Assembly: GCA_012295275.1 (NCBI GenBank)
Contig: CM022679.1
Coordinates: forward strand, 2,480,001 to 2,544,000
Source: Chrysomallon squamiferum
Taxonomy: Eukaryota > Animalia > Mollusca
Reading direction: 5' to 3'
DNA length: 64,000 nt
Shown: piece by piece, positions 1 through 39,478 of the stretch
How positions within the stretch are numbered: the stretch's first letter is position 1
Layout of the letters: every line of letters begins with the position of its first letter
Program-made: the position numbers and the translations under genes
Notes under the pieces: model-generated
Told to the model about the DNA's origin: nothing
Seen by the model: the letters and a program-made list of their open reading frames with translations, nothing else
The model's database searches: none

Positions 1-231
1 TATTTTTGCAAATAATGAATAAAAAAAGTTATAAAATATGCCATTATTTATTTAAAATAAAAGTTAAAAATTTTGATCAAATAATATTAACATTCATTTA
101 ACAAATTAAAAAAATATTAATGATGACTGTAACATAATATATATTAGTGATTATTTCAGTATTAATAAAAATTAGTGATTAACTCAACATTATTAATAAT
201 TAATTTAAGACAATGAAGTGTTTCAATTCAG

Positions 232-1481
232 GTGGTTACGGGCTGCGACTCATCCTGTATAGCTGTGTGGGACATTGAGAGTGGTAACAAGTCCATTGTG
301 TTCTCAAACGCTCACGGGGAAGAGGAGATAACTGTGATGACTTTCGACGAAACCTGGCGACGACTCATGACAGGAGCAAGAAATGGAACCATAAAAGTAC
401 AAAAAAAAAATAAAAATTATTTACAGGAATCTTTAAATTTATGATTTAAAAAAATTGCCAATAATTTGGTTTGATAGTAACAAACTTTCAATACTCATAA
501 AAATTTTTTTTTTTTTTAAATTCCTTTCAAATATAAAAAGAGAAATTAAAATAATTTATTTAGGTGTTGATTAAAATAGTTTATTTAGGTGTCAGTAAAT
601 AATAGTTGTACGCTTTAGGTTTGGAATTTTCAAAATGGCCACAACTTGCACAAACTGGATCCATCATCAGACGCAGAAGTGACAGGAATTGTTCCAGTGA
701 AGGACAAAAAGGTCATCGTAGCTGTAGGCTGGAGTAGACACATCACCAAGTATGACGACTCTGATGCTGATGTAAGAGTTTATCACCATCATCATCATCA
801 TCATCATTATCACCATATTTACAAGAATCATCATAATCACTGTAACATTTACCAGCATTATCATCATAATCATCATCATCATAATCATCACATTTAATGT
901 CATTTTAATAATGATTAGTACATTTGTTGACTTTCTTCTTATTATTGTTGTATTATCATTATAATATGCTGAATGTATAAGCATGTACAGGACTGGCATA
1001 CTTCATAATCTCTGTGAAAAAATACCATAAAAAGAATTGTAAAAATACTTTTATTTGCCAATATTTGCTGTTTTTGTCAGAACATGTACATTCCTGCCAA
1101 TGAAGACTGGAAGGGGGGACAACTCCATGACGATGACATTCTGACGATGGACTTCTGTCCCCCTAACTACATCGCGACTGGAGGCTTTGACGGAGAAATC
1201 ATTGTTTGGGAACTGGAGACAGAAAAAATGTTTAACAGACTGAGAAAAGGAAAACCTACAAACCTGTGAGTGGATTTTAATACAAATAAACAACAACAAA
1301 AAATATCTATCTATGTCTATCTAACATGTGTTTATACACAGTTTACATTTCATGTATGTATGTATGTATGTATGTATGTATGTGTTTATGTACATATACA
1401 TGTATGTTTTTGTACACAAGCGAGAACTCATCCATAACTGTATATATTCAACTTTGTATTTGTATTTTATATATATATATA

Positions 1482-1523
<42 letters not shown>

Positions 1524-3203
1524 AATGTTCATCTGTCTATCTCTATATAAGAAATATATTTACTGTTCAGGTCTAAGAAGATAGAGAGTTTGACACGTCA
1601 GACTGGATCTCGGCCATCGTCTAAAAACGACAGACCAAACTCGCGACACCAGAAAAACCACAAACTTGTTCATGGGTGAGAACCACTGACCTACCCCTCG
1701 ATTTGTATTTTATATAAACAAAATATCTAAAACTAGATTTTTATATCTTTTATTTGTTTTACTGATTGGTTATTGATACCATAAAATATAAAAAACAAAT
1801 AAAATAAACAAATATAAAAATAAATAAAGAATATACAATAAAAAAAAAATAAAAAGAAAAGAAATTAAATAAATAAGCCTACAAGCAAGCCATCCATCAA
1901 AAAACAGTAAACAAATAAAAAAAAAATTATAATAATAAATAAAAAAGAAAAAGAAATAAATAAAAACAATTATAAAAATTGGTTCCTATCTTCAAACTCA
2001 TAATAGTAATACACTATATAAAAACAGAAAGAAAACGTAGACAGTATGTATTGTATGTGAGTTACTGTTGTTGGTTCATTGTTACTCTTGCTGTTGTTTC
2101 AGTCAGCCCACGCCTGTCGACAAGCTGCTGTTTCTGAGGGGTCGTGCACAGACTCGCTACTCGGAAAGTGCAATACTCGTGTCAAGTGAGGGGGGGACTC
2201 TCCACTGGTGGAACATCTACAGTCCGAATGCAGAGCTAGGTAAAATTAGTTTCGTAAAATTTACACACAGGACAATAGGAAGTAAAATAATAAAAATAAA
2301 AAATTAACTGTAATAATAAAATAATAATATAATAGTTAAAAATAAAGTAAATCAAACAACTTTAATATATAAATAAAATGATAAGAACTGAAGTAAATTA
2401 AAATAATGACAGAAATAGTTTCTGTAATGTTTACAAAATAATTTCACATTTGTTTATTTTTTTTTATTATTATTATTATTTTTTCCTTTCACAGGAATAC
2501 TTAAAAACAAAAAAACAAAAACAAACAAACAACAAACATTATGATGTTCAAATATAAAATAATATATATCAAGATTTTTCTACTGTCACAATGTCTGTTA
2601 TTTGATTATGTTTTACAGGATATTTTTATGCTCCTGAGAGTGAGGATGTCTCCATCCTGGCCATGTGTTCAAAACCCAACAACAGCATCCTCATCACAGG
2701 GGACACTGTTGGAATCATCAAAGTGTGGGACATCATGGGCTACTGCACCAAGGCACAGAAAAAGGTAAGAAAAATATTACAGATGAACAGAGAGGTAATG
2801 ATAGTAATAATACTGGTAAATAAAGATAAATGTAATAAAAATAATAATAATAATAATAATTAAAGTAAACAGATAACTATAATGATAATACAGATAATAG
2901 ATTATGTAATTATAGTGACAATAAATGTAAGTAAAAAGGTAAATAATAATTATAATTAACAGAAATGCTGGTAAACCGAATCTTGCTACTGCAACAACTA
3001 CCATCAAAATTACTACATAATCTGTTGTTAAACTTTTAAAGTTACTACTACTACCACTACTACTGCTACTATTACTACAGTTATAATAATGATAATAACA
3101 ATAATAATAAAAATAATAACATTAATATTATTATTTACTATTGTTATTTTTGTCGTTATGATTATCAATATTATGATTATTATTAGTTATTATTACTATT
3201 ATT

Positions 3204-3242
<39 letters not shown>

Positions 3243-5642
3243 ATTATTATTTATTACACAGAGAGTTAAGACGAAGCCTCCCATAGAGAACTGCTGGCGA
3301 GCTCACGAGTCGGCCATTGTGAGTGTGGAGTACATTGAACATGATGCTGGAGTGTTTGTACTCAGCGCCTCCACGGACAGGACAGCGCGGCTGTGGACGC
3401 TGATGGGTGAATACATCGGCACATTCGGTCAGGTCAGTTTTCACTCATTATTTAATTATGTGTTTTTGTGCAGTGTTACTAATATGGTGAATAAGTTTTG
3501 TGTATTTGAAATGTTTTGTTTGTAACTGAAACCAAACTTAAAAATATTTGTTAATAAAAGGATTTAATTTAATAATTTCAGAAAACATCTTGGAATTTAA
3601 GCAAACCCTCAACTTGGGCTCACCCTAAAACTCCGTTTACAACAGATGAAGAATTCAAAGGTTTGTTTCAGTTTATATTTGAAAAAAAAAAAACCCACCT
3701 AAAACAAGTAATCCATATATCTATATATGTATTTTGCAAAACACATACACATATACATACAGACACTCAGTTTAAATAAAATATATTTTCAATTTCAGTT
3801 CCACCATCACACCGGCAGGAGAAACCTGCAGAGTCTAAACCTGTCGTCTCTGAGTCAAACGATGCTGTATCCAGCCCTGAAATCAATGCAGGGGAAACAA
3901 CTCCTGTCAACGCAGGGGAAACAACTATTGACAACAGCAATGAAAACACAAAAATAGAGGTCCATTAATTATTAATATTTTATTTTTTTACATTATTTTA
4001 TGCACCAGCATTCTCCTGTTTTCTAATTCCAGTCTTTTTAAGAGCAATTTTTAAATCAAATAAGAGAAATACTATTAACTCTTTCAAATTCAGTTCTCTC
4101 TTCTTTATCATATTAAAATAACAACAACAATAAATAATATTAATAATAAATATTTTTTTCTTTTTCATAAAATTAAATAACATTTTAGACTTTATTATTT
4201 TACATCTGTTTTTATGAATGCAGCAATTTTAAGTTTTTATTAAACTAGATGTCACAGCACTTTGTATTACTGCATGAATCATTTATTAATCTATGTATGC
4301 ATGCATGTATGTAAGAATCTATGTATGTATATGTATATGCAACTGGAATATAGAAAATATATATGCACTGTGTGTTTACACCAGAATGAAATAAAACAAA
4401 ATGGTGACATATAATCTTGCATGATGAAAGTGCACTGACTAAAATATCTGTCATTTTCTCAATTTCTTCCGAAATGGCATCAGTGAAACAAACAAAATAA
4501 AATTTAGAAAAGTCAAACTACACTGTTTCTATTATAACATGTTTTTAAATAAAGAGAAATTAATATATATTAAAAAGAAAAAAGATAGAATTTAATATAC
4601 AATGAAGAGTATATGAAATTCACCAGGTTTTTTCAAAATGTTTCAGTTTAGACATTTGAAATAAACATTTTTAAGTTACTGCAACAAAACTACAATAAAT
4701 CCATTTTTCATTTAAGGGTACTCAATTAAGTAAGAACATCTTTTTTGGTTATATTATTATTGAAATTTTCATTATAATTATTAAAAATATATGTCCACTT
4801 TGTAATATATCTCATTGTTAAGATGATGATGTTGACATTAATGTCATCATTAATAAAAAAAAAACTCTGCCATTTTGATATTTTTAAAAGAATGATGTTA
4901 TCATTAATCTTGCCATTAGTGAAAACTGATGCCATTTCGGTGTTTAACTGCATGCAGTTCTAACACTAGAGTATTTTATATGCCTCACGTGTGTCTGTGC
5001 ATGCCTCACTGTAGTGTTGCTTTCACAGCCTCAGTCTCAAAGTGTTGTTGTACCTACGAAGCCAGCCTCGGAGTTTCCCCGTGACGTCAGATTCAAGTAC
5101 CGCTCCCAGACTTACACGTTCGGCTTCGACCAAACTGACCCAGGAAAGGTAGAGAGTCGAGAATTAAACATTTGTTTAAAACTTGCCAGAACTTCTGTGT
5201 TTTGTTTTTCTTTTATTCACATTCATTCTGTAGGTAAAATCGTTTTTTTTTTTAATGTTATCATTATTATTATTATTTAAAAAAAAAAGAAGAAAAGAAT
5301 ATAAAATCCAAGTCAAGAATATATATATATAAGACCATTTTATATAATCACTGTTTGCATATGATTATTAATGGAAATGTATTATTTTTCTACTTCTTTT
5401 GAAATCTTACAAGATATTTCTCACAATTAACAAGAATATTATCATATTGGAGATTTTAATAAAAAAATCATTAAAATAATTTAAAAAAAAATCAACAAGT
5501 AATGTTACTGAATCAATTATCTACCAGTAAATTTATTATTTGTAAAATTAGTTAAGATTCGTAAAGAAAATATATTTGTCCATTTTGATTTGCTTATTAT
5601 TAGTATTATTATTATTTATTTATTTATTTATATATATATATA

Positions 5643-5676
<34 letters not shown>

Positions 5677-6431
5677 TTTTGTTTGACAGACGTTTCTTGG
5701 TGTGAAGGTAGAGAAAGATTTTGCGAGGAAGAAACAAGACAGACAAGGACGGAGACACGTGTTCGGAGAAATCACCACGTCGCAGACGTCACGCTATGGA
5801 CAAATCTGTTCTCCATACCAGGCACTCACCACTCCAGTAAGACAAATACAACACCGTATACAATTTCATACAAGAAAAGTAACATGGCCGTCACTTACGA
5901 CAGTTCTGGCAAAAGTAATGAAATGGAAAATTTGCATGATTTGACCTTGAGACCATTTTACATGACATTATTCTGACATCGCAAAACAAATAACAAAATG
6001 TTAAAAACATAAATCGTGTCATCTAAATTGTGATTTATATTTAAAGATTATAATGATGGAATATATCTGCAAAATCATTTTATTATTATTTTATTATTTA
6101 TTTGTTTTTTCAGGATTTCTCTGAAGTGGAACTTCCGCAAAACCTCCCTCTCAGTTCGAGGATGCGCAGTCGCGGTTACACCAGTGACAATTTGACGTTT
6201 GAAAAAATCAAAAGCATGGACTTTTCTTACTTCAGTCCCGACTCGCCCCCTAGCGGCGAGGACGATGCACTCAGTTTGAAAACTTCCAGCAGGAGTGGCT
6301 CTGCAGGAACGAGTCGACTTCCTCCCATCAAATCAGCAACAACGGCGAAGGTTTCGTGGTCCAAACTGCCGGGGCAGATTGGCTCCAATGAAGAAACAAG
6401 CGACATTTATATGACCTTTCACATTTCATGA
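232..6431 (+). CDS. WD40-repeat protein, WDR49/WDY (CFAP337)-like; 3' portion, the 5' exons lie upstream of the window
   Basis: Twelve phase-consistent AG/GT exons: 232-396, 619-771, 1081-1265, 1571-1675, 2103-2239, 2619-2764, 3262-3432, 3582-3660, 3799-3959, 5029-5148, 5690-5836, 6114-6431 (TGA). The spliced product has repeated WD40 signatures (VVTGCDSSCIAVWDI; LMTGARNGTIKVWNFQNG; IATGGFDGEIIVWE; LITGDTVGIIKVWDI; WRAHESAIVSVEY...LSASTDRTARLWT..GEYIGTFGQ). The KVWNF.NG and G.YIGTFGQ..W segments resemble WDR49/WDY-family proteins as I recall them. The donor after exon 3799-3959 (GTCCAT) is weak. Confidence 0.85.
780..895. repeat. Degenerate (CAT)n intronic microsatellite
   Basis: CATCATCAT/CATAAT runs right after the GTAAG donor at 772; they produce the spurious poly-His ORF. 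Confidence 0.85.
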
Positions 6432-8530: not shown

Positions 8531-8576
8531 ATTATTTTAATTTTTTTAAATAATTCCTCACCATTATTTTTTAATT

Positions 8577-8704
8577 TGTACCTTAAATGCAGCAACAGTG
8601 AGTCACCTGGTGAGTGATGACACCCCCACCTCAGAGTGGCTAATACGGGAACTCATACTTGAAAATGTGTTTCTGGGGGACTGTTCACCTAAGGTACAGA
8701 ACAT
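8577..8704. repeat. 128-bp dispersed repeat, copy 1, with terminal inverted repeats (MITE-like or structured ncRNA)
   Basis: Matches 14420-14547 at 124 of 128 positions, same orientation; ends TGTACCTTA ... TAAGGTACA-GA-ACA. Confidence 0.85.
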
Positions 8705-8748: not shown

Positions 8749-9420
8749 GTTCAATCGGGCATTTCATTGTTAAAAATAAAATGGTAACCACACACGCGAT
8801 TTGTGTGTAAACTACAGGAACAAACTGAACACAGAACTGTTGTTCCCTCTTTTGAAGCTAACCTGCTGTTGACGTAATCAAACAATAGAAAAATCAGCTA
8901 TCGTTATTGAAACTCCCGACAAAAACAGACCCGAACTGGATCATGTCACATGACGCTATACATCCAGACTTACAAGTTCATTTATTTTTTTTGTATTATT
9001 TGTACTGTGCAATTGAAAGAAAAAATTTATAATATGCAAGCGGATATTTATGCCTCATTTTACCGTTTATAAGAAATCGATATGCGATTGTTAAGTAAAT
9101 CATTTGCCAAAAGAAATGCACCTAACGATTAAATTTAAAGTCAGTTTTTGCGTTTAATGACTTATTTTCCCCGCACTGTAGTACACGAAGAGAGTCATCG
9201 ATGTCAGAACCGTTTTCATCTAACCGCGTAAAATTGTAATCGAGAATTGTTGAGGGTGTGCGGGGTTTGTATTCATTTAAGCAGCGACAAAATAGATTCC
9301 CTCTACCTTACAGGTAAAAATCAGCTTCTCTCAATTAGAACAATTTAAAATGACAAACAAGAAATTTTAGTACATTTTTATTAAACCTTTTATCCCAGTA
9401 TTTTTACAAGTACTAATGTT

Positions 9421-10079
9421 TTAATGTACGACGTCATCGTCTCCAGCGTCTTCAGCTCCATCTTCATCGACAGCTTCTACAACTGCAGGAAAAATTTGTT
9501 ATTAGTTTCAAATTATTGAATTTGAAGATGCGAAATTTCACATGTTTTGAATCATTACTTACGCTCATCTTTGTCCACGAAGTTGAAATCGTCCAATTCA
9601 GCGGCGTTCAGTTTGCCGTCACCATCGCCATCTGCAGCGTGGAATTTTTTCATTTGAACCACGTTTGTGGGTTTCAGACCCGATGCTACAGCGATTTCAT
9701 GCAGGTCAGCAAAACCATCTCCGTTCAGATCCAGTTCTTTCAAAGCAGCGACATCGTCAGCATCCTGAAAATTCAAAAAAAAACGACATTTTCATTATAT
9801 AGCGATTACAAAGAACATACACATATTATTCTAATTTAAACAAGAGAAAAGCAAATACTTGGTAAATACCTCTGCTGGAGGAGCACGCACGTCCAATCCT
9901 CTCTTCCTCTTGCACACCTTGCATGCCCAGCTCCTGGCCCACTTACAGGCCGCCATACAACCAAGTGTGTGATACGGACTGACGCGAATTCTTCGCACGG
10001 ATCGGAAGAACCAGCCGTCCACGTTTTCAGGAACCAAGGTCAAGGACAACAGAACCAGCAAGAAATATGTGGTTTTCAT
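9421..10079 (-). CDS. Secreted cationic Cys-peptide / EF-hand precursor, copy A (candidate antimicrobial peptide precursor, 157 aa)
   Basis: Coding exons 10079-9870 (70 aa), 9764-9563 and 9482-9421 (TAA), all with canonical GT/AG and consistent phase. Protein: MKTTYFLLVLLSLTLVPENVDG | WFFRSVRRIRVSPYHTLGCMAACKWARSWACKVC | KRKR | GLDVRAPPAE-DADDVAALKELDLNGDGFADLHE...FHAADGDGDGKLNAAELDDFNFVDKDE-LVEAVDEDGAEDAGDDDVVH. It has two canonical 12-residue EF loops. AATAAA lies at 9382-9377. Confidence 0.88.
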
Positions 10080-10181
10080 TTTGCTGTAAAAATGTAAATA
10101 TTTAATTTAGGATTCTTCACATTGAAATTATAAAAAGCATATAACTTAAAGAATAATAAATAAATAAGAATTAAAACTTAC

Positions 10182-10293
10182 TTGAAAAAAATTTCTCCAC
10201 ACTTCAGAAAACTGGCACAAAACACTGGAAGACGATGAAGTGACTACGCGTCGAAATTTCACTTATTTATATTGTAAAAATTAATCACGTGAC
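10182..10293 (-). promoter_or_regulatory. Non-coding exon 1 and core promoter of peptide gene A
   Basis: Donor GTAAGT at 10181-10176 and acceptor CAG at 10086-10084 just before CAAAATG. TATAAATA at 10271-10264, Inr-like TCACTT about 30 nt downstream (~10241), and GTCACGTGA E-box at 10293-10285. All are conserved in copy B. Confidence 0.7.
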
Positions 10294-10465
10294 CAGTCAT
10301 GAAATTCGTTCTGCACGCTCCTCCTCAGATATCCAGTGAAAATGTTTGAACTGTAAATATACGTCAGTGTCTGTGAAAACAGAAAACACAGATTGAGCTT
10401 TACAAAACAGTTATGAGATAATTGTGTGAAATTTTCCTTTCTCTAATGAACTTTGCAATTAACAC

Positions 10466-10530
<65 letters not shown>

Positions 10531-10690
10531 GTGTGAGTGTGTGTGTGTGAGTGTGTGTGCATTTTCTAAAATACAAAATGTCAAAATATCATGTAGGTTT
10601 TTACACAAAAAGTAAACAAATTAAAATATTAATAAATGATATGGTATTTGTCCTGAGTAGAGTTTATTTATTTACTTACTTACTTACTTT

Positions 10691-10732
<42 letters not shown>

Positions 10733-12780
10733 ATTATTCTTCTTTGAGAATTTAAACCAATTTAACTGTGATATCTTGTCATCCTTGGATCTGGACCTGA
10801 AGGCTTTGTGTTTTCTTGTAAGTATTTGTTACTTTATGAATATAACAGTTTTTACACTAACTTTGACTTATTACACAAACAGACAGCATATGTGTGATTA
10901 TGTTTACATTTGTTATGTGTTAAAACGTGCCGATACCTCGACACGTTCACATTTGCTGACCCTAATAGTCTATAACGTTATATTTCAGCGCCTTTTTTGT
11001 ATTATTGTTCTTGTTGCTGTTATTATTATTATTATTAAGTTATTAATAGTATTATTGTAGTCGCTGTTGTGTATTGGTATTATTAAGTTATTAATAGTAT
11101 TATTGTAGATGCTGTTGTGTATTGGTATTATTAATTATTAGTGTTATCGTTGTTGTTGTCATCGTTTTCGTTGTTGTGTCTTTTGCTATTGTCTTTATTG
11201 TTTTTAGAATTTTAGATTTTTCTTGCTGTAGTTATTTATTTTTGTATTTATTTATTTATTGATATATTTATTATTTTTTTTTTAAATCTCTGAATTATCG
11301 ATTTATTATTTGCCTTATAACAAATAACCGAGGCATGTTTTTTACTGGGAAATTACTAAGCATTCGTTCATGTCGTCTTTCATTCAATACACGTTCATAC
11401 TCACAGTGGCTGGTTGATTCTGAATTTCCCCATATCACGTCCGCTCCGACACACACAAACAAACTGAACAGGTAGGAGAACGAGAATTAATAACAATTTA
11501 AACAAACTGTACTCCCATACTGCTTTTGTATCTTGTGACTCGTCTTTGCTAGTAAAACACTCACATTAAAGTAATCACATAACATTACAATCAACATCGG
11601 ACTTCAGTAATAATAATAATAACAATAACTGATAATAATAATAATAAACAAATAAAGCTGTACGATTTGAAATACAGGTTTTTTTTTAAAGTTTATATGA
11701 TCATCATGACTATGAGAATTTCACTTATGGTTTAATTATAGTTGGTATAAAAAAAAGTAAAAGAAAATCACGTGATATTTTCATTTTACACATACACCGA
11801 TTCATATACGAGTCTTCAAGATTAGAACATTAAAACTTACATTTCAAAATCATTTTTATTATAATTAATTTATTCTATCAGTTAAAGTCCAAGCTATGGT
11901 TCTTAATTGCTCTGTCACTCCGCATCACAGATTAAATAAATGTACATATTTGTTCTGTAAAGGAAAAAGATTTACAACAAAAAAAAGGCTCAACTTTTTT
12001 CATGTACTGGAGATAGGATCAGTTTTCCCAGGATCAGTTTTCCCACGCTTCATCAAACTGATCATTTTCTGTTAATCACATTAACAGTTATATCAGTAAC
12101 AATCGTTTTGTTAGAATGAAAAAGTTCATTGAATGAGGATCGTTTTTTTTTTTCAAATGTTTTTCCCTGACAAACACAAAGTATTCGACAGTAAAAAATA
12201 TATTTTCAGTCTAATGAAAGAGTTGTGATAGTAAAATAAATTTTATGGATGCCTTATGTCTTTTACATATTTTGCGAAGAAAAGTAGTTTTGTCTTCACC
12301 CATTTTGGACTAGCTAAATTTTTTACACTTCGTGAAATATACGATCGATAAGACGACCGTTTTTGCGTCTGACGACTTAATATTCGCGCTATAATCGTAT
12401 ATAAATTAGTCATTTAGGCCACTTCAAATGTCCTTTTATCGCCAACCGTTTAAAAAAATTCTAACATTTGTGGAATATCTTAAACTGCGACATTGGCGTC
12501 ATCGAAATCTTGTCGATTTCCACTTATTTAAAATATATTAGCAAGTATAATATTGTCAAAATACTTTCTACATTTTAGCGCACATGAATGCAATTAGTAG
12601 CGATTTGTCGAGTTCATATGATAACTCATTTCTCATTTTCAAATATCTTTACAAAGATTAGAAATGATACTTGCACGTATTTGTATTTTATTTACACTGC
12701 AATATGCAACAAACCAAAGAGTATTTTAATATTTTTATTAAACCTTTATCCCAGTATTTTTTAATACAAGTACCAATGTT

Positions 12781-13444
12781 TTAATGTACGACGTCATCGT
12801 CTCCAGCGTCTTCAGCTCCATCTTCATCGACAGCTTCTACAACTGCAGGAAAAATTTGTTATTAGTTTCAAATTTTTGAATTAGCAGATGCGAAATTTCA
12901 CATGTTTTGAATCATTACTTACGTTCATCTTTATCCACGAAGTTGAAATCGTCCAATTCAGCTGCGTTCAGTTTGCCGTCACCATCGCCATCTGCAGCGT
13001 GGAATTTTTTCATTTGAACCATGTTTGTGGGTTTCAGACCCGATGCTACAGCGATTTCATGCAGGTCAGCAAAACCATCTCCGTTCAGATCCATTTCTTT
13101 CAAAGCTGCGACATCGTCAGCATCCTGAAAATTCAAAAAAAAAACATTTTCATTATATTTGACGATTACAAAGAACATTTCACATCATTGTTCCTAAAAT
13201 TTAAATTAGAGAAAAGCCAAGATCCGACAAATACCTCTGCTGGAGGAGCTCGCACGTTCAGTCCCCTCTTCCTCTTGCACACCTTGCATGCCCAGCTCCT
13301 GGCCCACTTACAGGCCGCCATACAACCAAGTGTGTGATACGGACTGACGCGAATTCTTCGCACGGATCGGAAGAACCAGCCGTCCACGTTTTCAGGAACC
13401 AAGGTCAAGGCCAGCAGAACTAGCAAGAAGTACGTGGTCTTCAT
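12781..13444 (-). CDS. Secreted cationic Cys-peptide / EF-hand precursor, copy B (157 aa)
   Basis: Coding exons 13444-13235, 13124-12923 and 12842-12781 (TAA), the same structure as copy A. It differs by 4 aa (S>A in the signal; D>N, L>M, V>M in the propiece); the mature peptide is identical. AATAAA lies at 12739-12734. Confidence 0.88.
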
Positions 13445-13562
13445 TTTGCTGTAAAAATGTAAAATTTATATTTAGGATGCTTTACAGTGAAATTATAAAA
13501 AGCATGTAACTTAAAGAATAATAAATAAATAAATAAATAAATAAATAAGAATTAAAACTTAC

Positions 13563-13677
13563 TTGAACAAAATAATTTCTCCACACTTCAGAGAACCGAA
13601 ACAAAACACTGGAAGACGATGAAGTGACTACACAATGAAACTTCACTTATTTATATTGTAAAAATTAATCACGTGAC
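13563..13677 (-). promoter_or_regulatory. Non-coding exon 1 and core promoter of peptide gene B
   Basis: Donor GTAAGT at 13562-13557, TATAAATA at 13655-13648, GTCACGTGA at 13677-13669; homologous to the copy A promoter. Confidence 0.7.
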
Positions 13678-13873
13678 CAGACATGAAATTCGTTCTGCAC
13701 GAACATCCTCAGATAACATCCAGTGAAAATGTTTGTACTGGAAATATACGTCAGTGTCAGTGAAAATAGAAAACACTGAGTGAACATTACAAAATATTAT
13801 AACATAACTGTAAAATTTATTCTTTTGAATCAACTAGAAATGTAGTTAATGTTTGTGATAAAGAGTTTATATA

Positions 13874-13930
<57 letters not shown>

Positions 13931-14419
13931 GACACAGCTAAATGTTTAATTCATGTCAAATGATTTTTATTCTTAAAATTAAAAATAATTTATCTCTCGT
14001 ATTCTGGGAATCGTGGATGTGTGGTGTTGCTATTCTTTCCCTCGATCCGTACGTGAAAGTTTTAGACGTGTTTTCTTCACTGGAATATTTGTATTTTGTG
14101 TATATCATAACTTGAACATACCACAGATAGTGTACGTTTGATTATGCTTTCATTTTGTGATGTGCTGAAATGTGTTGACACCTTAGCACATTTATATTTT
14201 ACAGCCATTTTCCTGCATGCATGCGTCTTCATACACCTATTTCTTTTATTTTTCATTTTTATTCATTTTCATTTATTTATTTATCTATTATTGTTGTTGT
14301 TGTAATTAATTTGTCACCATTATATTTTAATAATAATTTAAAGAAGTAGATGAATTAATAATTTAATTGATTTACATAAAATAAATAAATAAATAAATAA
14401 ATAAATAAATCTTTTAATC

Positions 14420-14547
14420 TGTACCTTGAATGCAGCAACAGTGAGTCACCTGGTGAGTGATGATACCCCCACCTCAGAGTGGCTAATACAGGAACTCATA
14501 CTTGAAAATGTGTTTCTGGGGGACTGTTCACCCAAGGTACAGAACAT
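14420..14547. repeat. 128-bp dispersed repeat, copy 2
   Basis: Direct repeat of 8577-8704; ends TGTACCTTG ... CAAGGTACA-GA-ACA. Confidence 0.85.
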
Positions 14548-17741: not shown

Positions 17742-18145
17742 TCACATTTCTAAAAGTTTCTCTAAGGATTTCAGCAAATGCTGTATTCCAAACAAAACGT
17801 TAGAGTCGGTTTCCGAAGCCGGGAACACGCGACCGAAGTCAATGAGTCGCAGTTCTACTGGAATCGGGTCGCTCACGTTTTCTTCTCGCTCTTCATGCTC
17901 GCTGCAGTGGTTGTTCACGTTTACGATTTTGTCGTCTGCTTTTCTTGGCGTGTCGTATATGAGCAAGAGTGAACTGGAATAAAAGGCAAATGATTTCTGA
18001 GCTAGGAACCACGTCTCTATATCTTTCAGTTTTGGAATTAAGGCGCGGATGGCATCTTTTCTAAGACGTTGGTCTAATCCGAAGAACTTTCCTAAACCTG
18101 AAAATAAATAAATAAAAATAAATTAATTAAATAAATAAATAAATA

Positions 18146-18181
<36 letters not shown>

Positions 18182-19530
18182 AAAGAAAAGAAAAATTAGA
18201 AAAAACACAGGAAGAAAAAACACAATCGTCAACTACATTATTAATGTGCATCAATTTGATTATATCGCTTATCGAGTGACACTATGGAAATGCTGTAATA
18301 TTCTACAAAAATTGGAATTACAACCCGTTACATTCATTGCTCTTGGACAGACGTATCGAATATGGAATTATTATTAATTTATTTTATTTTATTTTTTTTT
18401 AACAGTGAGAAGTAAATGTAAAATAAATCTTGATAATCCAAAATATAACTGGCAGTTGGTTTTCATTTTCAGACTTTACTGTTATAAATATATATAATTT
18501 CAAATTTAATGGCGACTGTTTGACTTACCATCAGCTAGGACTGCTTCTTCAGAAATAGCCAGACATATTTCTTTTTCAACACGTTCGAAACTACCAGAAT
18601 TCTGATTGTACACCTAGAAAAAATATAAATCAAACAACCATCGCTCGCATCAGAGAACATTTACATGCACGCTTCTCTCCATATATTACTCTGTCTCTCC
18701 ACGTTTAAACAAAGACAATTCTCAATGAAAAAGAACTGGACTACTCTTCTTCAGACATTTACTTTATGATCACTTAGGTTCTCAAGTCTGTTAAAATAGT
18801 ACTACTGCTACTATTACTACTACTATTATAATTGCTACTACTACTACTACTACTTCACAGTTCATGCTACCATTAACACAATTACTACAACTTCTACAGC
18901 TTCTATTAGTACTACTAGAACATTACTATTAGTTCTACTACCACTATCACTACTATTATTATGTCCAAATCAGTTAGCATATATATATATATATATATTT
19001 TTTTTTTTTAACTTTTCTTTCCGTTTGTACTCCATATGGTATTCAACGAATTCTATTAACTTTGGACTGCGTAGAATGATCTGTTTAATTTAAATGTCTG
19101 ATAACATTATTTTAAAAACAGTACTGTCACATGACATGAGCAAGGTCGCGTGAGTCACGCCAAAAAACGGCAGCTAGCGTGCGTATTATTAATCATGTTC
19201 GATTTAGGAAGGAAAAATCTTTTCACGAATCACAGATTTACCATCATTCGTGACAAGACGAAACTGTTTCAAACTTACCATCATTCCTGACAAAACAAAG
19301 CCAAGATGTTCCGCACATCTGAATTTTGGCCTTTTTTCCAGCACATGGGTTTCATTCGATTGGGGTTCCGACGTAACACGACCCATCTTGATGTCCACCA
19401 CGGATGGATTCTCAAAGTTCGAGCACACGTTTTCCATGACCAAAAACGTAACTGTAATAATAATAACAGTAATAATACTGCTGCTACCACTATACTATAA
19501 ACACTACTACTACGACCATCACCACAGCCA

Positions 19531-19561
<31 letters not shown>

Positions 19562-19583
19562 AACTAATAACTATAATGATAGC

Positions 19584-19659
<76 letters not shown>

Positions 19660-20165
19660 CTACTACTACTATTAACACTACTGCTACTATCACCACCACC
19701 ACTACTACTACTTGAACTACTACAACTATTACTACTACAAACAACAACAACAACAACAACAACAATAATAATAATAATAATAACAACAGCAACAACAATA
19801 ACACGAACAATAACAATAATAATAAATGATAAGCCATTATGATTCAAGTCAATAAATGGTACGTTTATATAATAAAACTGTGTAGAATTAATAAGGGAAA
19901 TAAAATATAAATACCTCCATCTTTTACAACGGTTCCGTTAAAAGCTGGAATAAATCTTCTCAGACTGAGTGAAATTTCGTCCCGGCAGTTGACGTCAAAT
20001 ATTGACTTGTAAAATTCAAGTTCACGCTTTCCACGTGCCGAATTTTGAACTGCTTTTAATATCAGTCCTTTGCCAATGTCAAATATTCCTTGAAAATAAA
20101 AATAGAAATAAAAAAATAAAATAAAAAATAAATAAATAAATAAAATAAAATAATAACAGAAAACA

Positions 20166-20203
<38 letters not shown>

Positions 20204-20318
20204 CATACATAATCAACATACAAATAATTGTTTGAATATACAGACATATTCAAACTTTTATTAAAAGTATGGTAATTAAATGATCAAGATTAATTAGTGC
20301 CAAAAATCCTGTACATTA

Positions 20319-20379
<61 letters not shown>

Positions 20380-20712
20380 TACAACAATAATAATATTAAT
20401 ACAAATAAATAAAAATAAATAAATAAATGCTTCTAATATATCAGTGAGTGATAACTGTCTTATTGAAGCAGTGTTAAAACAGTCCTCAACAACATAAACC
20501 ACAGACAATATCAAATAAAAATAATAAAACTAAATTAAATAAATGTATATGTTACCTTCACTTAAAACTTTTAAAGATAATTTTACGATGCAAAACAAAC
20601 CATTATGATGACCAGCCACTTGAGTCAGTAAGGGTTTCATCATTTCAATATGGATCTTTCCTTCCGTTGTTTCAACAGCACCTTCATTGCAATGTCGCTC
20701 AGTAAAATTCAT
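17742..20712 (-). CDS. IPMK: Inositol polyphosphate multikinase-like (IPK family), divergent paralog, 299 aa
   Basis: Exons 20712-20601, 20088-19915, 19451-19279, 18613-18529 and 18097-17742 total 900 nt and are phase-consistent. IPK motifs: QVAGH, RGKRELEFY, PSVVDIKMG (PxxxDxKxG), YSSSLLLIYD, LIDFGR. The symbol marks the family; the exact orthology is uncertain. Confidence 0.85.
19455..19825. repeat. Compound intronic microsatellite (ACT/AAC/AAT)
   Basis: Fills most of intron 2 of the divergent IPMK paralog. Confidence 0.9.
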
Positions 20713-22426
20713 TCTTTAAACTATATCTGTAACTTCCACTTCTCTAGTCCCCGTCTGCACTGGAGTAAAGTATTCTCTCGTAATATGACATAATAACAAT
20801 TTTAATATAATTAAGTTACGCTGTTTTCTTTGCAGGAATGTAAGTTTAATGCAAAAATGTTATTTCGTCATTTATGTGGAATACAAATGATATATCACAG
20901 AGCTAAAGGCAGTATCTATAAGACAGATATGTATATTATAGCAATTTGTGAGTTAAAATATTATTAATTGAAATAAAATTTAAATGTAAAAGCAGGGTAA
21001 GAAATACATGGAGTACTGTAAAGCAAGTAATTTTCGGCTATTGAATGGTTTTCAATGGTTGCTAAGAACCGTTGCTACGACCGGTCATAAAAAGTAAAAC
21101 CAGGAAGTACACATCATGCGCGACACGTTTCTTGCTAAAAAATATAAACCGTACTCACGTGTAATAATTTCACATCGGGTGCGTTGTATCGATTTATTAG
21201 TGTCTTTTGTAAATCGTGTATCATTCAACAATAACAGATTTTATTTCGGCTTATTTTCTTCATCTATTTTCTATTCCGAATCGAATCGTTTATATTTTCT
21301 ACTCCATACTGCGAGCGGTCTCTCGAAATACCGATGATATCCGAAAGCAAACATAATTACGCATAGGCCGTGTCTTAACCGTCTGCGAGTTACGGTAATT
21401 AAAAAGAGTTCAGTTAAAACCGCTAATACAGAGCTAAATTGATAATATCATTATATATTTAATAAACAGAAAATATTATTTACATTTAACTTAGTTTGTT
21501 TCATCCGATTAGAAGAAGATAAACGCCTCAAACCGGAAACGTCTACAGTTATTATCGTTTCAGAGCAATCGACATTAAAGTTGCTTAGCGCACGTTCAAC
21601 TGAGTCGTTACAACTATCTTCAGAAGTAGGTGTGTTTGATAACATGGCGTATGAAAATAAATGTTATCACTGACTAAATATAATGTTTCTGTTAATATCA
21701 TCATAATCGAAATCATCATTATCATCATCAGAACTAAATGGAGTTATTGTTGTACACTGGTGTTGATATCCGAGTTCAATCGAGAAGTTCTGGGCTTCCC
21801 CAGCTTATGATCGCTAAAATCGTTTTCAATAAATTTTATTTTTGTTCTTCTTCCGTTGTTCTTATTCAAATACATGCACATGCACGCACGCACGCACACA
21901 CAGATTTAGTAGCACGAACTAATATGATACTGTTGCGTGGAAAACTTACGTCTATCGGAAATGTTAGACTCCACCCGTTGTTTTAACTCACGATATCTCT
22001 GGAAAAAAATAAAAAATAAAAAAAATAAAAATTATTCCTAGGTTTTAGTTCCTGTTTAAAGGGTTTCATACAATGACACGAACCATATTTCTCGTCATTT
22101 ATTTTCTGTTAGTATAACCATTGTTTCCATTTTCGATTATAATTCAATTTTTGTTGCTTAATGTATTTAGTAATACACGCACGCCCGCACACACACATGT
22201 GCTTACACAGAATCAGTCCTGTTTGTAGTAAATATAAAAATATCGTATTGCACAGCACGTACGTATGCTACATATACACTGTCTACCGGTTTATTGTCGT
22301 TATAATTGCAGGGAAAAAATGTGCTATTTTACAAATACCTTTCAGAATGTCATTTAACTAACAACTGGTTTCAAATAACCTATATACTTTAAACCCATTG
22401 TTGTAAGCAATTCTATATTAAATATC

Positions 22427-27015: not shown

Positions 27016-29787
27016 TTAAGAATAATTTGATTCTTGTCTCAGAAGCTGATCCAGATATTTCAGAAGACTGTGGATTCCGTATAAAACATTTTGATCAATG
27101 TCTGATGAAGGGAAAACATGAGCAAAGTCAATCATGTGAATATCGACTCTAGTTTTGTCTTTCACACTTTCTGTTCTCAGTCCGCAGTTTTCACATTTTC
27201 TGTTGCTGTGTCCTGTTTTGTGCTCAGTGTCGTAAACTATCAGAAGGGAACTGGCGTAAAATGAAAATGATTTTTGCGAAGAGAACCATTTCTCAATGTC
27301 TCTCAGTTTGGGAAGCAGCGCTTGAATCACATCCTTTCTTAACCTTTGAGGCAAGCCAAAGAATTTGCCTAGACCTGGAAAAAAGAAACCAAAATTGAAT
27401 AAAAACTGACCTAAAAAAATTAAAAATATTTTAGTTAATAATCCAAATGACATCTGATGAATGAAAAGAGATTTAATATTTAAGTCAAGAAAGTTGTTTA
27501 AAAAATCTTTGTGTATTATTAACTATTTAAAACAAAATTGGCCTGACATTTTAAAATGAATTAGATGCAGATGATACTAAGTAACAGAAGAGATTTCATT
27601 ACACCAGATTCACATGTAATAAAATCTCTCTTTAAATCTGAATTACGAGAATTTCCCTGTTAGCTCAGATAATTCAGAATCAATCAAACAGTTCAGGTTC
27701 AAATCCTCTCTGTGTAGGTCAAATAAAAACAAATTTTAAAGTTCCCCTTTTCAGAACTATACAGAGATAACTTCCCTGTTAATTCTGCTGACACAACACT
27801 GGACTCCCAAACTGACAGCTAAATAAAAAATTAAACTAATCTGTCTATTGACGGCTATACAACAGTTTACACTGTCATAAAACAATAAATTACCTTCAAG
27901 AAGAACGGACTCTTCCGGTATTTTGTGACAGGCTTGTTTGTCAATGTAGTCAAATGTACCTGTTACCTCATTGAACACCTGGAATCAAATTAGCTTGTAA
28001 ATTTACTATAAACAACAGTAAAATTTTATTTTTAAAAAGTGACAACAAATAAATGTAGTTATACATGTACTTATTGATCAGTTTGGGTTTTTTTAATTTC
28101 AACTAGTAAGGTTACATTATGTATCAAACAATTTAAAAAAAGAATAGATAGAGTTCCTCAAAATAAATAGATATTTTAAAATTTATTTCAAACATGACTG
28201 GAAATGAAACTTGAAATGAGATGAAAAAAATAAAATTAGGCAACAGAAAATGGTGAGTATCTGTAACAAAATGCTGTATTTCTAGTACACATGTGCTTCA
28301 GCCAAGTTCAGGTAGATAGATAATTACCTTTCATTAACTTTTTTATGCCCATTGTTTTGTTTCTTCTGCATAAAAACAAGTTCATTATACACACCTAATA
28401 CAGAAATATACATGTATCACAAGGTTTTTAATAGTTTTGCCTTCTAATTTTAAACCCATAATTATTTCACTGTAGATATTTACCCTCATTCCAGACAACT
28501 GAAAACCAAGTCTTTCAGTGTATGGACATTTCTTTTTCTCCCGTTCCACTTTATCTGGTGGAGCTTCAGGGTCAGAGGTCACACGGCCCATCTTGATGTC
28601 TAAGACAGAGGGATTCTCGTATTGTGAACAAACGTTGTCCAGAATCATGAATGTCACTGAAACAAAAACATTTACATTACTTAATTTTTCCTTCTTCCTA
28701 TTATAATTATTATATATATATATATATATATTTTTTTATTTTTTATTTTCAGTCTGGACATTATTAGATTCTTGTGTGTATGCAGTTTTATATGATCTTT
28801 TTATATCAATAAAATAAATGACTGTAGAAAAACACTACATAAAACCTCTGCTAACAAAAAGTCAATCTAAACTGCAAAATCATTGTTGACTTGGTTAATA
28901 TTTATGTTTTCACAAGAAGTAAAACTATTTCAAATGTTTCCATATTCTGTTTGTACTTATATGCATTTTTTTTTAATAATCATACTAATTTAGATTTCAG
29001 GTCAAGGAAAAAGATACGCCTTCTTGCACAAAACAGTCTAAGTTTTAAATCTATTTTAATACTTCAGTTTCACAAACAGCAAGTTAAAAGTGAGACGTAA
29101 ATAATTATACTACCTCCATCCTTGACGACAGTTCCATGAAAACATGGCACAAAGTTTCTCAGAGTCAGAATGTTGTCATCCTTGCAGCTGCTGTCAAACA
29201 CCATTTTGTAGAAGCCGAGTTCGCGCGTTCCACGTGGTGGCTGCTGCACAGCTTTCAGCACTCGACCATTTCCTAAATCTAGCATTCCTGTAAAACAGAA
29301 AAATAAACATATCTCTTAAACAGTCGAGTAAAATAAAGAAATAAAGAATAATAATAAAACATCTACAAGAAAGATTAACAATAATTATTAAAATAAAAAT
29401 ACTGCATATATAACAACAACAAATAAATAAATAAATAAATATCACAAAGAGCTTTTCAGTTTAATCCCCTTGCACTGTTCAATGAAATTATTTAGTTACT
29501 GGTTTCAGGATGGTGAGGGATATGGACAAGTTTATTTCTAATCACTCAGCAGATTACTGTAGATTTCAAAATCAGAACTCCCAAGCAGTACACTGCAGTA
29601 ACACCTCATGAAATTATCACTGGTTGCCATGACACCTGTAGAAGTTTAAGCTGAAGTCTACAGAGATGTTGAACATACCATCTGTTCCTTTCAGCCCATA
29701 CTGGTGTCCAGCCACTTGGGTCAACAAAGGTTTGGTTCCTTCTATCCGTGACCTTGAATATTCACCATCTCTTCCCTCATGTGTCAT
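27016..29787 (-). CDS. IPMK: Inositol polyphosphate multikinase (IPK family), canonical copy, 299 aa
   Basis: Exons 29787-29679, 29287-29114, 28656-28484, 27978-27894 and 27374-27016 total 900 nt. The internal exon lengths (174/173/85) equal those of the paralog. Motifs: QVAGHQYG, LKAVQQPPRGTRELGFY, PSVLDIKMGRVTSDP, FYASSLLIVYD, MIDFAHVFP, typical of metazoan IPMK. Confidence 0.9.
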
Positions 29788-30311
29788 GTTCACAGATCCA
29801 GTATTTGTGTCTAAGCTCACTGAGGAATAAAATTCCCTCACTGCAACAGCCTGGCATCCTGAAAAATGTTAAAAAGAAATAGTATATATGCTGAGCAAAT
29901 TGTTATGCTTCTGAGTTCTGTAATTAAAATGTTAATTCAGTGTATTAAGATTTACTGTAATTGTAACATACAATTACTGTCAATTTAGTTTTACGTTATT
30001 ATTATTATTTAAGTTAATAATTTATAAATGGAAGGTAAATAAGAAGCATATAAAATCAAATGAAAACTGTATTTCTTTGTTTGCCAAAAACTACTTAATT
30101 TTATATGAATCAATTATTGCTCGTACAATAATTAATCTAGTTTTATTTGTAATCCATATTTGTATTTTGATATTTTGCAACATCAGCAGTATATTCTCCA
30201 TCTGCGGTTTTATTAATAAAAATAAAAATAAAAAAATAAAAAATGTATCGAATATTTATTACCAGGTAATATTTAAGATTTTAATTTCCATTTATGAATA
30301 TTTTATCCTTT

Positions 30312-32316: not shown

Positions 32317-33172
32317 AGAATGAAGGGCTGTAAGATATAAAACACATTCATAAGTACACACACACAAGCACACGTGCCTCTTTCTTTATATAGTGAGAAA
32401 GGAAAACAAAAAAAAAGATGCTACAGCGAACTTAGCGAACATAGCGATTAGAAACTTTTAGAAATTTTCCATATGGACATTATCGAAATAGCCTTGAACT
32501 TTATCAGATGACTACGGGCAGGTATGACTAATGGGAGGATACCACCGAGAAAGCTTTATCTCTGCCGTCTCATCAGACATAGAGTTCAACAGAGTTCAAG
32601 GTTGGGTGCACACATTCCTATCTCACAGTCATTGCCGTGTTACACTCAGTAATAATCAGGTCCTATGAGAGGGGGGAGGTCCAGCCAGTACTTTGTTCCG
32701 GGGCCCAAGAACTAAGAAGGGCCCCACAGCACTCTTGCAACATCCCCCCCCTCGAGAACAAGCACTTTCTATTCAGCCCAACATACACTTACATTCTCAT
32801 ATACACACGTCACTATATTTATCACAACACACTTACTTTTTATTATTAATATATTGAGAACAAATCTTTGCTTGCCCCAAAGAGGTTTTGTACCGCCGTG
32901 CAAAATTTTTCTTTGATGCGCTGGTAATAATGATATGGTCTCAGATCAGAAGGATTAGAAAGAAAAAACGGAATTTTGTGCAGATATGTTATTACTTTTA
33001 TCGTGATATTATTGAGATTTACTGGAATTCCGATCAATTTTGTCATCCGATCTCAGTTAATATAATAAATAATATCTAAATAGCGGATTCCAATTACTCA
33101 GTACAATATCTAAAAGCACATAAAACATATATTCATGACTACAGACTTTATTCAAAATATTATATAAACACA

Positions 33173-33209
<37 letters not shown>

Positions 33210-34283
33210 TTCAGCACCATATATATCACTAAAAATAATATATAAAAGCAAATATATATATATTCAAGATGGCATATATTATTCTAATATATAAAACATA
33301 CATATATTACTCAAAATGTGATAAAATAGCAGATATGTATTCAGGATCACATATAATTTAACTAATTGCAAAACACGCTTTCATTAGCAACTTACTATCA
33401 GAGTCCATCAAACTGCTTTGTTCTGGAGCAATGAAATAAGCACTGGAATGCACAGACCAGCATCTCTAACTGTTATAACTGTACCTATAGGGTGTGTGAC
33501 TACTGGCACGTGTAACTACTAGGCAGAAAGCGATGAATCAGGCGGGCTGTGTAACGTTATTCCGTTCACTGAACAGAAGAATGAATAAGGATATTGAACG
33601 GAAGATAGCAATAAATTTAATATAAGAAATTTCAGTAATTACAGATGTCAAAACATAGCCTTCTGTACTGAAACGAAAAATATTAAAAATATATAACACA
33701 CAATCATTCATGTCAAAGTTATTTTTTGTACATTTATCAACGAATGACCTTGACCTACAAACAGTACAATTTGTGACTGCATTAATAGAACCTGTATCGA
33801 TTATTTGGCTGAAACAGTTGTTCGTAAATAAAATGCGTATCGTAAACGTAATATATGAACACGACTTCTTCTCTGAAACATTACAAACAACCAAGCTTTC
33901 ATTTCATCATATTAATCTTCCAAATGCTTTTATAAACACGAGTTCGCTTCAGAGAAGTGCCTCGAAATGTTTGGAATCGCCGCCACGATGAGTACAACAT
34001 ATGAAAAATAAAATGACTGTAATATTTAGGATCACGCACAGTAACCAAAATGCTTTTATTTTGCTTTCAATATTAATGGGCTCGTCATTAAAAAAAATCC
34101 CTCTGGTACACTGCAGCAGACGTCCAAACGTAACGCGGGAAACATTGCAACTGTCCCCAGTCCTCCCACTTGTCGGCTTGCTCTACTTCCATCTCTAACG
34201 CGTCTTGCTATAGGCTGTTCCTATGGATCCACGGATCGATACGCGGGAAAGCCACAACAAACTGATGCGAACAAACCTGGTAC

Positions 34284-34392
34284 TATATAGGAAGTTGATC
34301 GCAGGCTGCTCACAGTTTGACTGCGTGTCGCAGAGATTCGGTTAAGGAGACTACTGAAACGAGATTTGGAGTTTGCCGTCCATCAGGTAAGA
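34284..34392 (+). promoter_or_regulatory. Putative TATA promoter and non-coding first exon (~34314-34386) of a gene extending downstream
   Basis: TATATAG at 34284, Inr-like ACAGTT with its A 30 nt downstream, a CpG-rich context, and donor CAG|GTAAGA at 34387. Confidence 0.45.
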
Positions 34393-35624
34393 ACGCGATT
34401 AGATGGGGATTGGCATTGTTTCATTTGTTCCGGAGTAATCCGAACTACTCCGAAATAGCCTATTTAATTCCCGGATTTGTAGCACAGTTTTGTTTTCGTG
34501 CTTTTGTTTACATTTGTCATCTTACTATTATAAACAGTTTGGTTGGGACGGGTAGAACTTGATAATCATCCCCCTCTAACTCTCGACAGAGCATGTATCC
34601 TAATTTTGTCGAAAACGACAGAAATTTTCGTACCTAAAACCGTATCAACATAACTGTATTTCTACGAACTTGTTTTATTTGTAAATGTAAATATACATAA
34701 TTGTGATTCGTGAAGCCTTATTCATTTGTGTGGATACTATAAATATAAAATTTTTTTGTTTTTTTTAATTAACACTTCTAAATTCGTGATGTGTTAACCC
34801 AAACGTCCACAATTATGATTTATTTATAAAGTGGTGAAAACATTATGTATCTTGTGAGAAACATGTGTAGCATCTTACATACGTTATCGTTATTATTCTT
34901 TCTTTTTGTCAGGACTGGGAATTCGTACTAATTAACGTTAAATTAGTTTATTGTTAATGTACTTCACGTTAACATGGCTCACTAAAGTAGATGATTCAAG
35001 AAAAAGAAGAAATAAGCATTTTCTTCTTCTTCTAATTATTATTATCACGTTTTATTATTAATTGTCATTTGAAACTCTTAATTCTTTCCTGAAGATAATT
35101 TTACTTAACTGCCAGCTTTTCTAACTGTTATTTTATTTAGTCGCGTGGAACAGATATATTCGAGTCGCTAAAAACAGAGAATAGTGAAATCGTAAAACTG
35201 AAGCGAAAGAAAGAATAAAAAAGATCGATTGTTTTCGACCTCACCGAGTGTGCTGGACTCTTTTGTGTACAGAACACAGGAAAATTCATCACATTTAGAC
35301 AATCCATACCGTATCAATAAAATTAAGAATAAAATATATTCAGCGTTATGTTTCTAGTCTCCCCAAGGTCGTATTCCTGCAGTCGTAGTTGGTAGCTGAG
35401 ATAGTTATAGCAGAACCAGAATTATGCAGTAACGTAAATAACGTCTAATGTTTACAGAACATGCAGAAAGAATTTGTGTGTTTTTTGTTGTTGGTTTTTT
35501 TTAAAAACGTGTTTGTCGTTTTATTTTTAATTATTAATATTCAAATTATGCAATAGCTTTTGAAATCAATATTGGCATAATTAAGAGGAGGTATTTTTTG
35601 TATTACACTGATGAGATATTCAAA

Positions 35625-35880
35625 TAGGCCTGTACTGACAGTGTTTTTACACAGGCCTATACACTAACAGTATTTTCACAAGCACTCTGCTGATAGGGTT
35701 TTAACACAGGCCTGTACACTAACAGTATTTTCACAAGGACTCTGCTGATAGGGTTTTAACACAGGCCTGTACACTAACAGTATTTTCACAAGCACTCTGC
35801 TGATAGGGTTTTAACACAGGCCTGTACACTAACAGTCTTTTCACAAGGACTCTGCTGATAGGGTTTTAACACAGGCCTAT
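35625..35880. repeat. 55-bp minisatellite, about 4.5 copies
   Basis: The unit CACAGGCCTGTACACTAACAGTATTTTCACAAG(C/G)ACTCTGCTGATAGGGTTTTAA starts at 35650, 35705, 35760 and 35815, with partial units at both ends. Confidence 0.95.

Positions 35881-39415: not shown

Positions 39416-39478
<63 letters not shown>

Follow-up and report, generated by a model that had tools for sequence, protein, structure and literature searches.

Few antimicrobial peptides have been described from gastropods (PMC11767717, in the portion available), and the closest described precursors to those reported here come from bivalves. The mytimycin precursors of the Mytilida consist of a signal peptide, a cationic cysteine-rich peptide, a dibasic site and an anionic C-terminal extension with an EF-hand; they are about 150 amino acids long and are encoded by a multi-copy family whose genes begin with a non-coding exon, and purifying selection acts on a portion of the mature peptide (PMC8004829, as far as this source was available to us). 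The role of the EF-hand propiece in mytimycins is stated there to be unknown. Here we describe a tandem pair of gastropod genes with this layout in a 64,000-nucleotide stretch of the genome of the vent snail Chrysomallon squamiferum (contig CM022679.1, positions 2,480,001 to 2,544,000; the whole stretch is referred to as the window). An original prediction, made from the letters of this DNA alone, had already pointed to the resemblance with mytimycins, which holds in the comparison with PMC8004829. We consider it rather probable that the pair represents an undescribed family of host-defence (antimicrobial) peptides of peltospirid vent snails, for which the cleavage, the fold and the activity are predicted.

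Both genes (copies A and B) are intact, lie on the minus strand and have four exons separated by GT-AG introns, exon 1 being non-coding. Each encodes, in 474 nucleotides, a precursor of 157 amino acids that is composed of a signal peptide, a 34-residue cationic peptide with four cysteines, the basic sequence KRKR and an acidic propiece with two EF-hands. In copy A, exon 1 is located at 10182..10243, with a GT donor and a 5′ end placed by an initiator-like site 28 nucleotides below the TATA box. Exon 2 of this copy (10083-9870, ATG at 10079, from the gene model) carries the 22-residue signal peptide (10014..10079, by hydropathy and the -3/-1 rule), the predicted mature peptide of 34 residues (9912..10013, by gene model, composition and conservation) and KRKR (9900..9911), which is invariant in seven full-length proteins of another vent snail, Gigantopelta aegis. 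The EF-hand pair is encoded by exon 3 (9563..9764, by Pfam and splice joints), with loops at about 9731-9696 and 9632-9597, and the acidic tail and stop by the coding part of exon 4 (9421..9482, by gene model and splice joint), beyond which an AATAAA is found at about 9377-9382. In copy B, exon 1 is located at 13563..13627, and an RNA contig from sequencing run X1 covers 13565-13616 and resumes at 13448. Exon 2 (13235..13448, ATG at 13444, by gene model and conservation) carries the signal peptide (13444-13379), the mature peptide (13378-13277), KRKR (13276-13265) and then the start of the propiece; exon 3 with the EF-hand pair is at 12923..13124 (RNA contigs, Pfam), and the coding part of exon 4 with the acidic tail and stop is at 12781..12842 (RNA contigs, gene model).

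The RNA evidence comes from contigs of seven public runs (X1-X7), which show presence and not level. Contigs of four of the seven runs (X1, X3, X5 and X6) jump over intron 2, with CT..AC ends. Intron 3 is skipped exactly in X1, and X2 and X3 have this joint as well, there spanning the two near-identical copies. In copy B, one X1 contig joins exon 1 to exon 2. Run X7 behaves as DNA, with introns and promoter covered and no clean CT..AC joint. Both genes are real, and spliced RNA is made from them; they are not chance open frames. Thus, the two intact four-exon genes of the original prediction are supported by gene models and spliced contigs, and the spliced transcripts whose absence would have spoken against it were found, while exon 1 and the promoter extend the locus beyond its range, to about 13760.

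Between the two copies, 16 of the 474 coding bases are different, and all 102 bases of the mature peptide are the same. The tandem duplication (9353..13919) was delimited by self-blastn, in which 9353-10530 aligns with 12709-13919 at 89% identity over 1226 columns, and the duplicated unit of about 1.2 kb sits between a WD40 gene and tandem inositol polyphosphate kinase (IPK) genes. Copies A and B cluster together, apart from the G. aegis rows, and by this clustering the duplication is recent. No third family copy was detected in the window when the family profile was compared with all six frames. A 139-nucleotide direct repeat, 96% identical, flanks the gene pair (8566-8704 and 14409-14547); it could be a small mobile element or a remnant of the gene pair's arrival.

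We recomputed all the counts for the precursor, and they agree with those originally given for the signal, the peptide and the propiece. The signal peptide, predicted by hydropathy, opens with basic residues, which are followed by a hydrophobic core; it has Pro17, and Val and Gly occupy positions -3 and -1. The mature peptide has seven Lys/Arg, no Asp/Glu and three Trp (net charge +7; about 4.08 kDa when reduced), with 59% hydrophobic residues, six aromatics and a single Pro; its cysteines at 19, 23, 31 and 34 are spaced C-X3-C-X7-C-X2-C. The propiece of 97 amino acids has 28 Asp/Glu versus seven Lys/Arg in copy A and 27 versus seven in copy B. In both copies, two stretches of exon 3 exceed the curated Pfam cut-off for EF-hands (EF-hand_5 and EF-hand_1 in copy A), and both 12-residue loops are canonical (Asp/Asn at 1, 3 and 5, Gly at 6 and Glu at 12); calcium binding is predicted, and the pair has the characters of a calmodulin-like lobe. 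The nearest solved relatives of the propiece are generic EF-hand proteins. The strict furin consensus is R-X-K/R-R. Since KRKR has Lys at P4, it is a predicted convertase-type tetrabasic site and not a strict furin site. No Gly precedes the basic site as an amidation signal, and no PRXamide motif is present in the precursor.

The mature peptide has no match in Pfam or NCBIfam. Among PDB sequences the 34-mer has no match at E ≤ 10, and exon 2 gave chance matches only. A single-sequence model of the peptide has a coil at 1-12 and helices at 13-25 and 29-36, with a mean predicted local distance difference test score (pLDDT) of 60.5; fold searches with this low-confidence model (best Foldseek E of 8, best Z of 3.2) point neither to a known fold nor to a new one. 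In the ESM Atlas, residues 18-62 had no usable match, and P0001 had only sub-0.9 generic EF-hand clusters, some of them molluscan, which are leads only.

Named relatives were found only in G. aegis in the sequence collections searched, where they are labelled as EF-hand proteins or as uncharacterised, as had been expected of automated annotation. The profile search gave 28 matches among 7,992 candidates scored, of which 10 are from G. aegis, 13 are exon fragments from ENA (one weak) and five are generic EF-hand proteins (P0023 and P0025-P0028), which were dropped. Using HMMER against 1.84 billion representatives, we obtained eight matches; five are family members, and the other three (P0029-P0031) were discarded as repeat-inflated chance matches. 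The homologue search that the original prediction had called for recovered relatives in G. aegis and no match to a described family. A pattern scan of JGI metagenomes gave 489 matches, none of which was confirmed. The available parts of the PMC7895826 and PMC11871041 supplements contain none of the typed peptide motifs, and these supplements seem to list few sequences. The family appears narrow in the collections searched, which need not span all mollusc transcriptomes.

It is evident that the parts of the precursor differ greatly in conservation. When the window copies are compared with the seven full-length G. aegis proteins, KRKR is 100% and the peptide 94.5% identical; identity falls to 72.7% for the signal, to 67.9% and 57.1% for the two EF loops, to 38.8-49.7% for the linkers and to 31.8% for the tail. 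Nine distinct peptide variants agree at 23 of 34 positions, with all Cys and Trp among these. The EF loops remain canonical in all full-length members examined. As read from these identities, selection acts on the peptide and its cut site, and not on the EF part.

The family is multi-copy. In G. aegis, seven clusters lie on scaffolds of four different lengths. In run X7, a 128-nucleotide contig over the peptide, with no differences, has a depth of 563 versus 45-56 in neighbouring contigs, which hints at about ten identical copies or alleles, depth being no copy number. Paralogues absent from the window are indicated by exon-3 contigs with 11-13 differences per 130-168 bases, by a contig with 39 differences in about 200 bases, and by an X7 contig of the peptide region with 27 differences in 140. 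In the G. aegis proteins P0011 and P0024, the same signal and a KRR site surround another core, which is Trp-rich, Cys-free and 14 or 19 amino acids long; both EF loops are retained in P0011, and the EF exon seems to be left out of the P0024 model. An interchangeable core between the same signal and a basic site would fit a carrier with its cargo. The Trp-rich, Cys-free 14- and 19-residue cores of P0011, P0024 and P0043 are themselves candidate further peptides. What is unusual, on the sequences compared, is that the mature peptide exceeds its signal and its carrier in conservation, that the copies are many and that the core can be swapped. The conservation maximum in the peptide, the copy number and the interchangeable core of the paralogues are observations beyond the original prediction.

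Two side observations concern the gene structure and distribution of the relatives. P0015-P0021, P0041, P0042 and P0013 break off within the second EF loop, and P0044 and the window genes read through; this suggests an extra intron, gained or lost within the family. In the available part of the PMC7895826 supplement, the G. aegis gene ctg670-2.24-1 is an EF-hand gene with no NR name that adjoins an unannotated gene. It lies a few genes from the syntenic inositol polyphosphate multikinase (IPMK) gene and may be a family member.

A lead on expression comes from the gene order around the pair. In G. aegis a WD-repeat gene adjoins one IPMK gene, and the authors' gene list has no gene between WD40 and IPMK. 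In the available parts of the published orthology tables, the G. aegis IPMK gene has two adjacent co-orthologues in C. squamiferum, and the WD40 orthologue is in the same bin. In the window, the coding-looking sequence between the WD40 gene and the IPK pair consists of the peptide exons only. The C. squamiferum expression sheet, in the rows available, lists WD40, gene 25.59, IPK and IPK, which is the order in the window, on the assumption that the list follows the genome. Because the two orders agree, 25.59 is likely one of the peptide genes, or a merged model of them, linked by list position and not by sequence. By this position-only match, expression is highest in the symbiont-housing oesophageal gland (377 transcripts per million), followed by gill (195), scale epithelium (182), mantle (104) and foot (15).

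Both promoters have the same predicted elements with equal spacing in a motif scan on the minus strand: a TATA box, the E-box GTCACGTGA and a cyclic-AMP response element (CRE) half-site. In copy A they are located at about 10266-10271, at 10285..10293 and near 10366, respectively, and in copy B at 13655, at 13669..13677 and near 13753. The GTCACGTGA E-box is 22 nucleotides above the TATA box in both copies, and these are two of the four such sites in the window. We take it to resemble the CLEAR/MITF-TFE site of lysosomal genes, a likeness only.

These results could be explained by the following mechanism. The signal peptide would route the precursor into the secretory pathway, where two disulfides would staple a short helix-turn-helix (13-34), preceded by an Arg/aromatic arm (1-12). 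Basic aromatic helices are ligands of calmodulin-type lobes, and by analogy the acidic, calcium-binding EF-hand pair could balance the +7 charge and shield the Trp/Phe/Arg arm during folding and storage. A convertase would then cleave at KRKR and a carboxypeptidase would trim the basic residues, and the released peptide would act on bacteria or fungi at microbe-exposed epithelia. The near-invariance of the peptide and its many copies suggest a high dose against a conserved microbial structure, for which an anionic membrane or a cell-wall precursor is proposed, and not an arms race. Two estimates date the split between Chrysomallon and Gigantopelta to 66 and to 116 million years ago, and the two genera are thought to have evolved symbiosis separately, according to the portions of the literature available. 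The family thus probably predates the gland symbiosis. This favors general defence, and an action against or on the gland symbionts may have come as a later co-option. A peptide identity of about 95% across this split points to a target that cannot easily change.

A bolder version, in which the genes form a lineage-restricted cassette, has the EF-hand carrier, sensitive to calcium and pH, mask the near-invariant peptide until an acidic, low-calcium bacteriocyte compartment is reached, so that two independently symbiotic snails would restrain or cull their intracellular chemosynthetic symbionts, the carrier also delivering the unrelated Trp-rich cores. We regard this version as doubtful, although not far-fetched. 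Legume NCR peptides and insect bacteriocyte peptides are parallels for such control of symbionts.

Several points weigh against a host-defence peptide. The antimicrobial role, the cleavage and the peptide product are all predicted here, and the structure models are weak (pLDDT of 49.5 for the full length and 60.5 for the peptide). Near-invariance is also typical of a receptor ligand, and many antimicrobial peptide families diversify, the mytimycins forming 13 groups with 10-14 cysteines (PMC8004829, in the part available). The statistics are to be read with caution: a permutation of the conservation values gave 0 of 100,000, which is overstated since columns were treated as independent, and the lack of A-versus-B changes in the peptide has only P = 0.019, or 0.08 at third positions. 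An NF-kB-like site is absent from both promoters in a scan with one pattern. The expression values are tied to the peptide genes by list position only, and there is one gene identifier (25.59) where the window carries two copies. Furthermore, in the available rows the values of the two IPK neighbours likewise peak in the gland, at 44 and 17 versus 6 and 3 in the foot, and thus part of the gland bias of 25.59 may be general.

We then weighed other functions that could account for the same precursor. The extreme conservation of the peptide and its convertase-type site would also be expected of a host signalling ligand (a neuropeptide, hormone or cytokine-like factor) released from an EF-hand prohormone and held invariant by a conserved host receptor, and the short Cys-free cores of the paralogues are neuropeptide-like. 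Many near-identical gene copies, however, are unusual for a hormone, the strongly cationic, aromatic composition suits membrane activity, and by the positional lead expression is high in four tissues that are not neural. Neuropeptide families usually have a broad taxonomic range, whereas no named relatives of the present family were found beyond G. aegis in the collections searched, and the peptide end lacks both a PRXamide and a Gly-basic amidation signal. Precursors of this kind with EF-hands do exist, namely the pleurin gene and nucleobindin/nesfatin (PMC8398477, in the portion available). On balance we judge a signalling ligand unlikely.

The retention of canonical EF loops in every full-length member examined raises another explanation, a secreted calcium-binding protein of matrix or mucus in which the EF part does the work and the basic segment at the N-terminus attaches the protein to an anionic matrix, to shell or to scale. 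The shell and sclerite proteomes of both snails commonly contain EF-hand domains (PMC11871041, in the part available), and the positional gene 25.59 is expressed in mantle and scale epithelium. However, divergence is fastest in the EF part and the tail, in contrast to the conserved peptide and KRKR; 25.59 peaks in a gland that does not mineralise and, among the rows listed, occurs in the expression table only and not in the matrix-protein sheets, the identifier being linked by position. A matrix protein thus seems less probable still. The least probable of the explanations considered, and a very unlikely one, is a deterrent toxin in mucus against predators or settlers, acting as a cysteine-stabilised helix-loop-helix channel blocker or cytolysin. 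The low-confidence model does give two helices, but toxin families are usually hypervariable in the mature region, and the peptide here shows the reverse; the positional expression also peaks in an internal gland. Scorpions and cone snails do have four-Cys helical hairpins that block potassium channels (PMC7191063, PMC3325286, in the portions available), yet their motif is CX3C-Xn-CX3C and the motif here is CX3C-X7-CX2C, and both snails feed via endosymbionts according to the sources available. Of the originally proposed antimicrobial peptide or toxin family, the undescribed family stands with antimicrobial defence as the favored function, and the toxin part is weak for a non-predatory symbiotic snail.

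The rest of the window is AT-rich, microsatellite-rich animal DNA, with a GC content of 25-36% in 2-kb bins. The WD40 gene is on the plus strand, with exons from 217 to about 6400 (217-6431). Two tandem IPMK-like genes, identified by the Pfam IPK domain, are on the minus strand at 17742-21000 and 27016-29900; their exons are 38-78% identical by tblastx, and G. aegis has one gene at the matching place. Scattered GC-richer open reading frames on the minus strand at about 32600-52500 (e.g., 34091-34207, 38774-38905 and 42365-42532) may be exons of another gene; the eight stretches tried had no Pfam match. A 17-nucleotide minisatellite array and a tandem repeat with a period of about 55 nucleotides are found at 57711-58017 and 35604-35878, respectively.

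We found no description of the family in the open-access literature, subscription papers and APD, DRAMP and ConoServer being outside the search, and the word "antimicrobial" is absent from the main text of the genome papers of both symbiotic peltospirids. The family has been hidden under EF-hand labels. Its peptide, short enough to be synthesised, is a candidate means by which these snails deal with the microbes on their surfaces and the symbionts in the gland.

Comparison with known systems places the peptide outside the families compared. The alpha-hairpinins and CS-alpha/alpha toxins (kappa-hefutoxin, OmTx, flf14 and vil14a; PMC7191063, PMC3325286, in the portions available) likewise have four cysteines in two pairs, in the snail peptide predicted to lie on two turn-joined helices. 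Their second pair, however, is CX3C, whereas the snail peptide has CX2C, bears a long N-terminal arm of Arg and aromatic residues and is made with an EF-hand propiece; there is no sequence or fold match. A C1-C4, C2-C3 disulfide connectivity is a further mark of the alpha-hairpinin group. All nine variants are C-X3-C-X7-C-X2-C and not C-X3-C-Xn-C-X3-C as in PMC7191063, so the alpha-hairpinin label that had been suggested for this locus was rejected. The arasins of crustaceans (PMC11767717, in the portion available) also join a basic linear N-terminal arm to a four-Cys C-terminal part, but their arm is Pro/Arg-rich while that of the snail is Arg/aromatic with a single Pro; there is no sequence match, an EF-hand carrier is not described for arasins in that portion, and membership was rejected on the arm. 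The turgencins of Synoicum turgens are marine cationic peptides of similar length with a tendency to a disulfide-linked helix-loop-helix, but they have six cysteines and an amidated end, their genes and precursors being uncharacterised in the available part of PMC7024374. The snail peptide has four cysteines and no Gly before the basic site and was not assigned to them. Pleurin (from a Helix lucorum gene) and nucleobindin/nesfatin share a secreted precursor with an N-terminal peptide that stands before the EF-hand region and is freed at basic sites; they differ in their short PRXamide or long nesfatin peptides, neural expression and wide taxonomic range (PMC8398477, as available), no sequence match was found, and a pleurin-type precursor was rejected for the lack of a C-terminal PRXamide motif.

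Alvinellacin of Alvinella pompejana is a cationic two-disulfide antimicrobial peptide from a vent symbiont host, has a folded anionic pro-domain and shapes the symbiont community of its host (PMC4002450, in the portion available), and it could serve as a functional model for the control of symbionts. It is, however, a C-terminal beta-hairpin behind a BRICHOS domain, whereas the snail peptide is N-terminal, predicted to be helical and followed by an EF-hand pair. Pfam gives EF-hands and no BRICHOS, so the BRICHOS peptides (alvinellacin and arenicin) were excluded. Mytimycins remain the nearest in layout. Their EF loop starts are, by eye, 35 residues apart in mytimycin D1 and 33 in the snail precursor. 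No mytimycin was among the sequence-search matches, such searches being weak for short divergent EF-hands. Mytimycins are of about 54 amino acids, diverse and built on a 10-Cys backbone (10-14 Cys), unlike the 34-residue, four-Cys, near-invariant snail peptide (PMC8004829, in the part available); the layout matches, and membership was rejected on peptide length and cysteine array. Antifungal activity and haemocyte expression are further marks of the mytimycins. Apparently, then, the family is undescribed and lineage-restricted but built on a known precursor type. As a second mollusc case of a peptide on an EF-hand propiece, it makes the question of what this propiece does testable.

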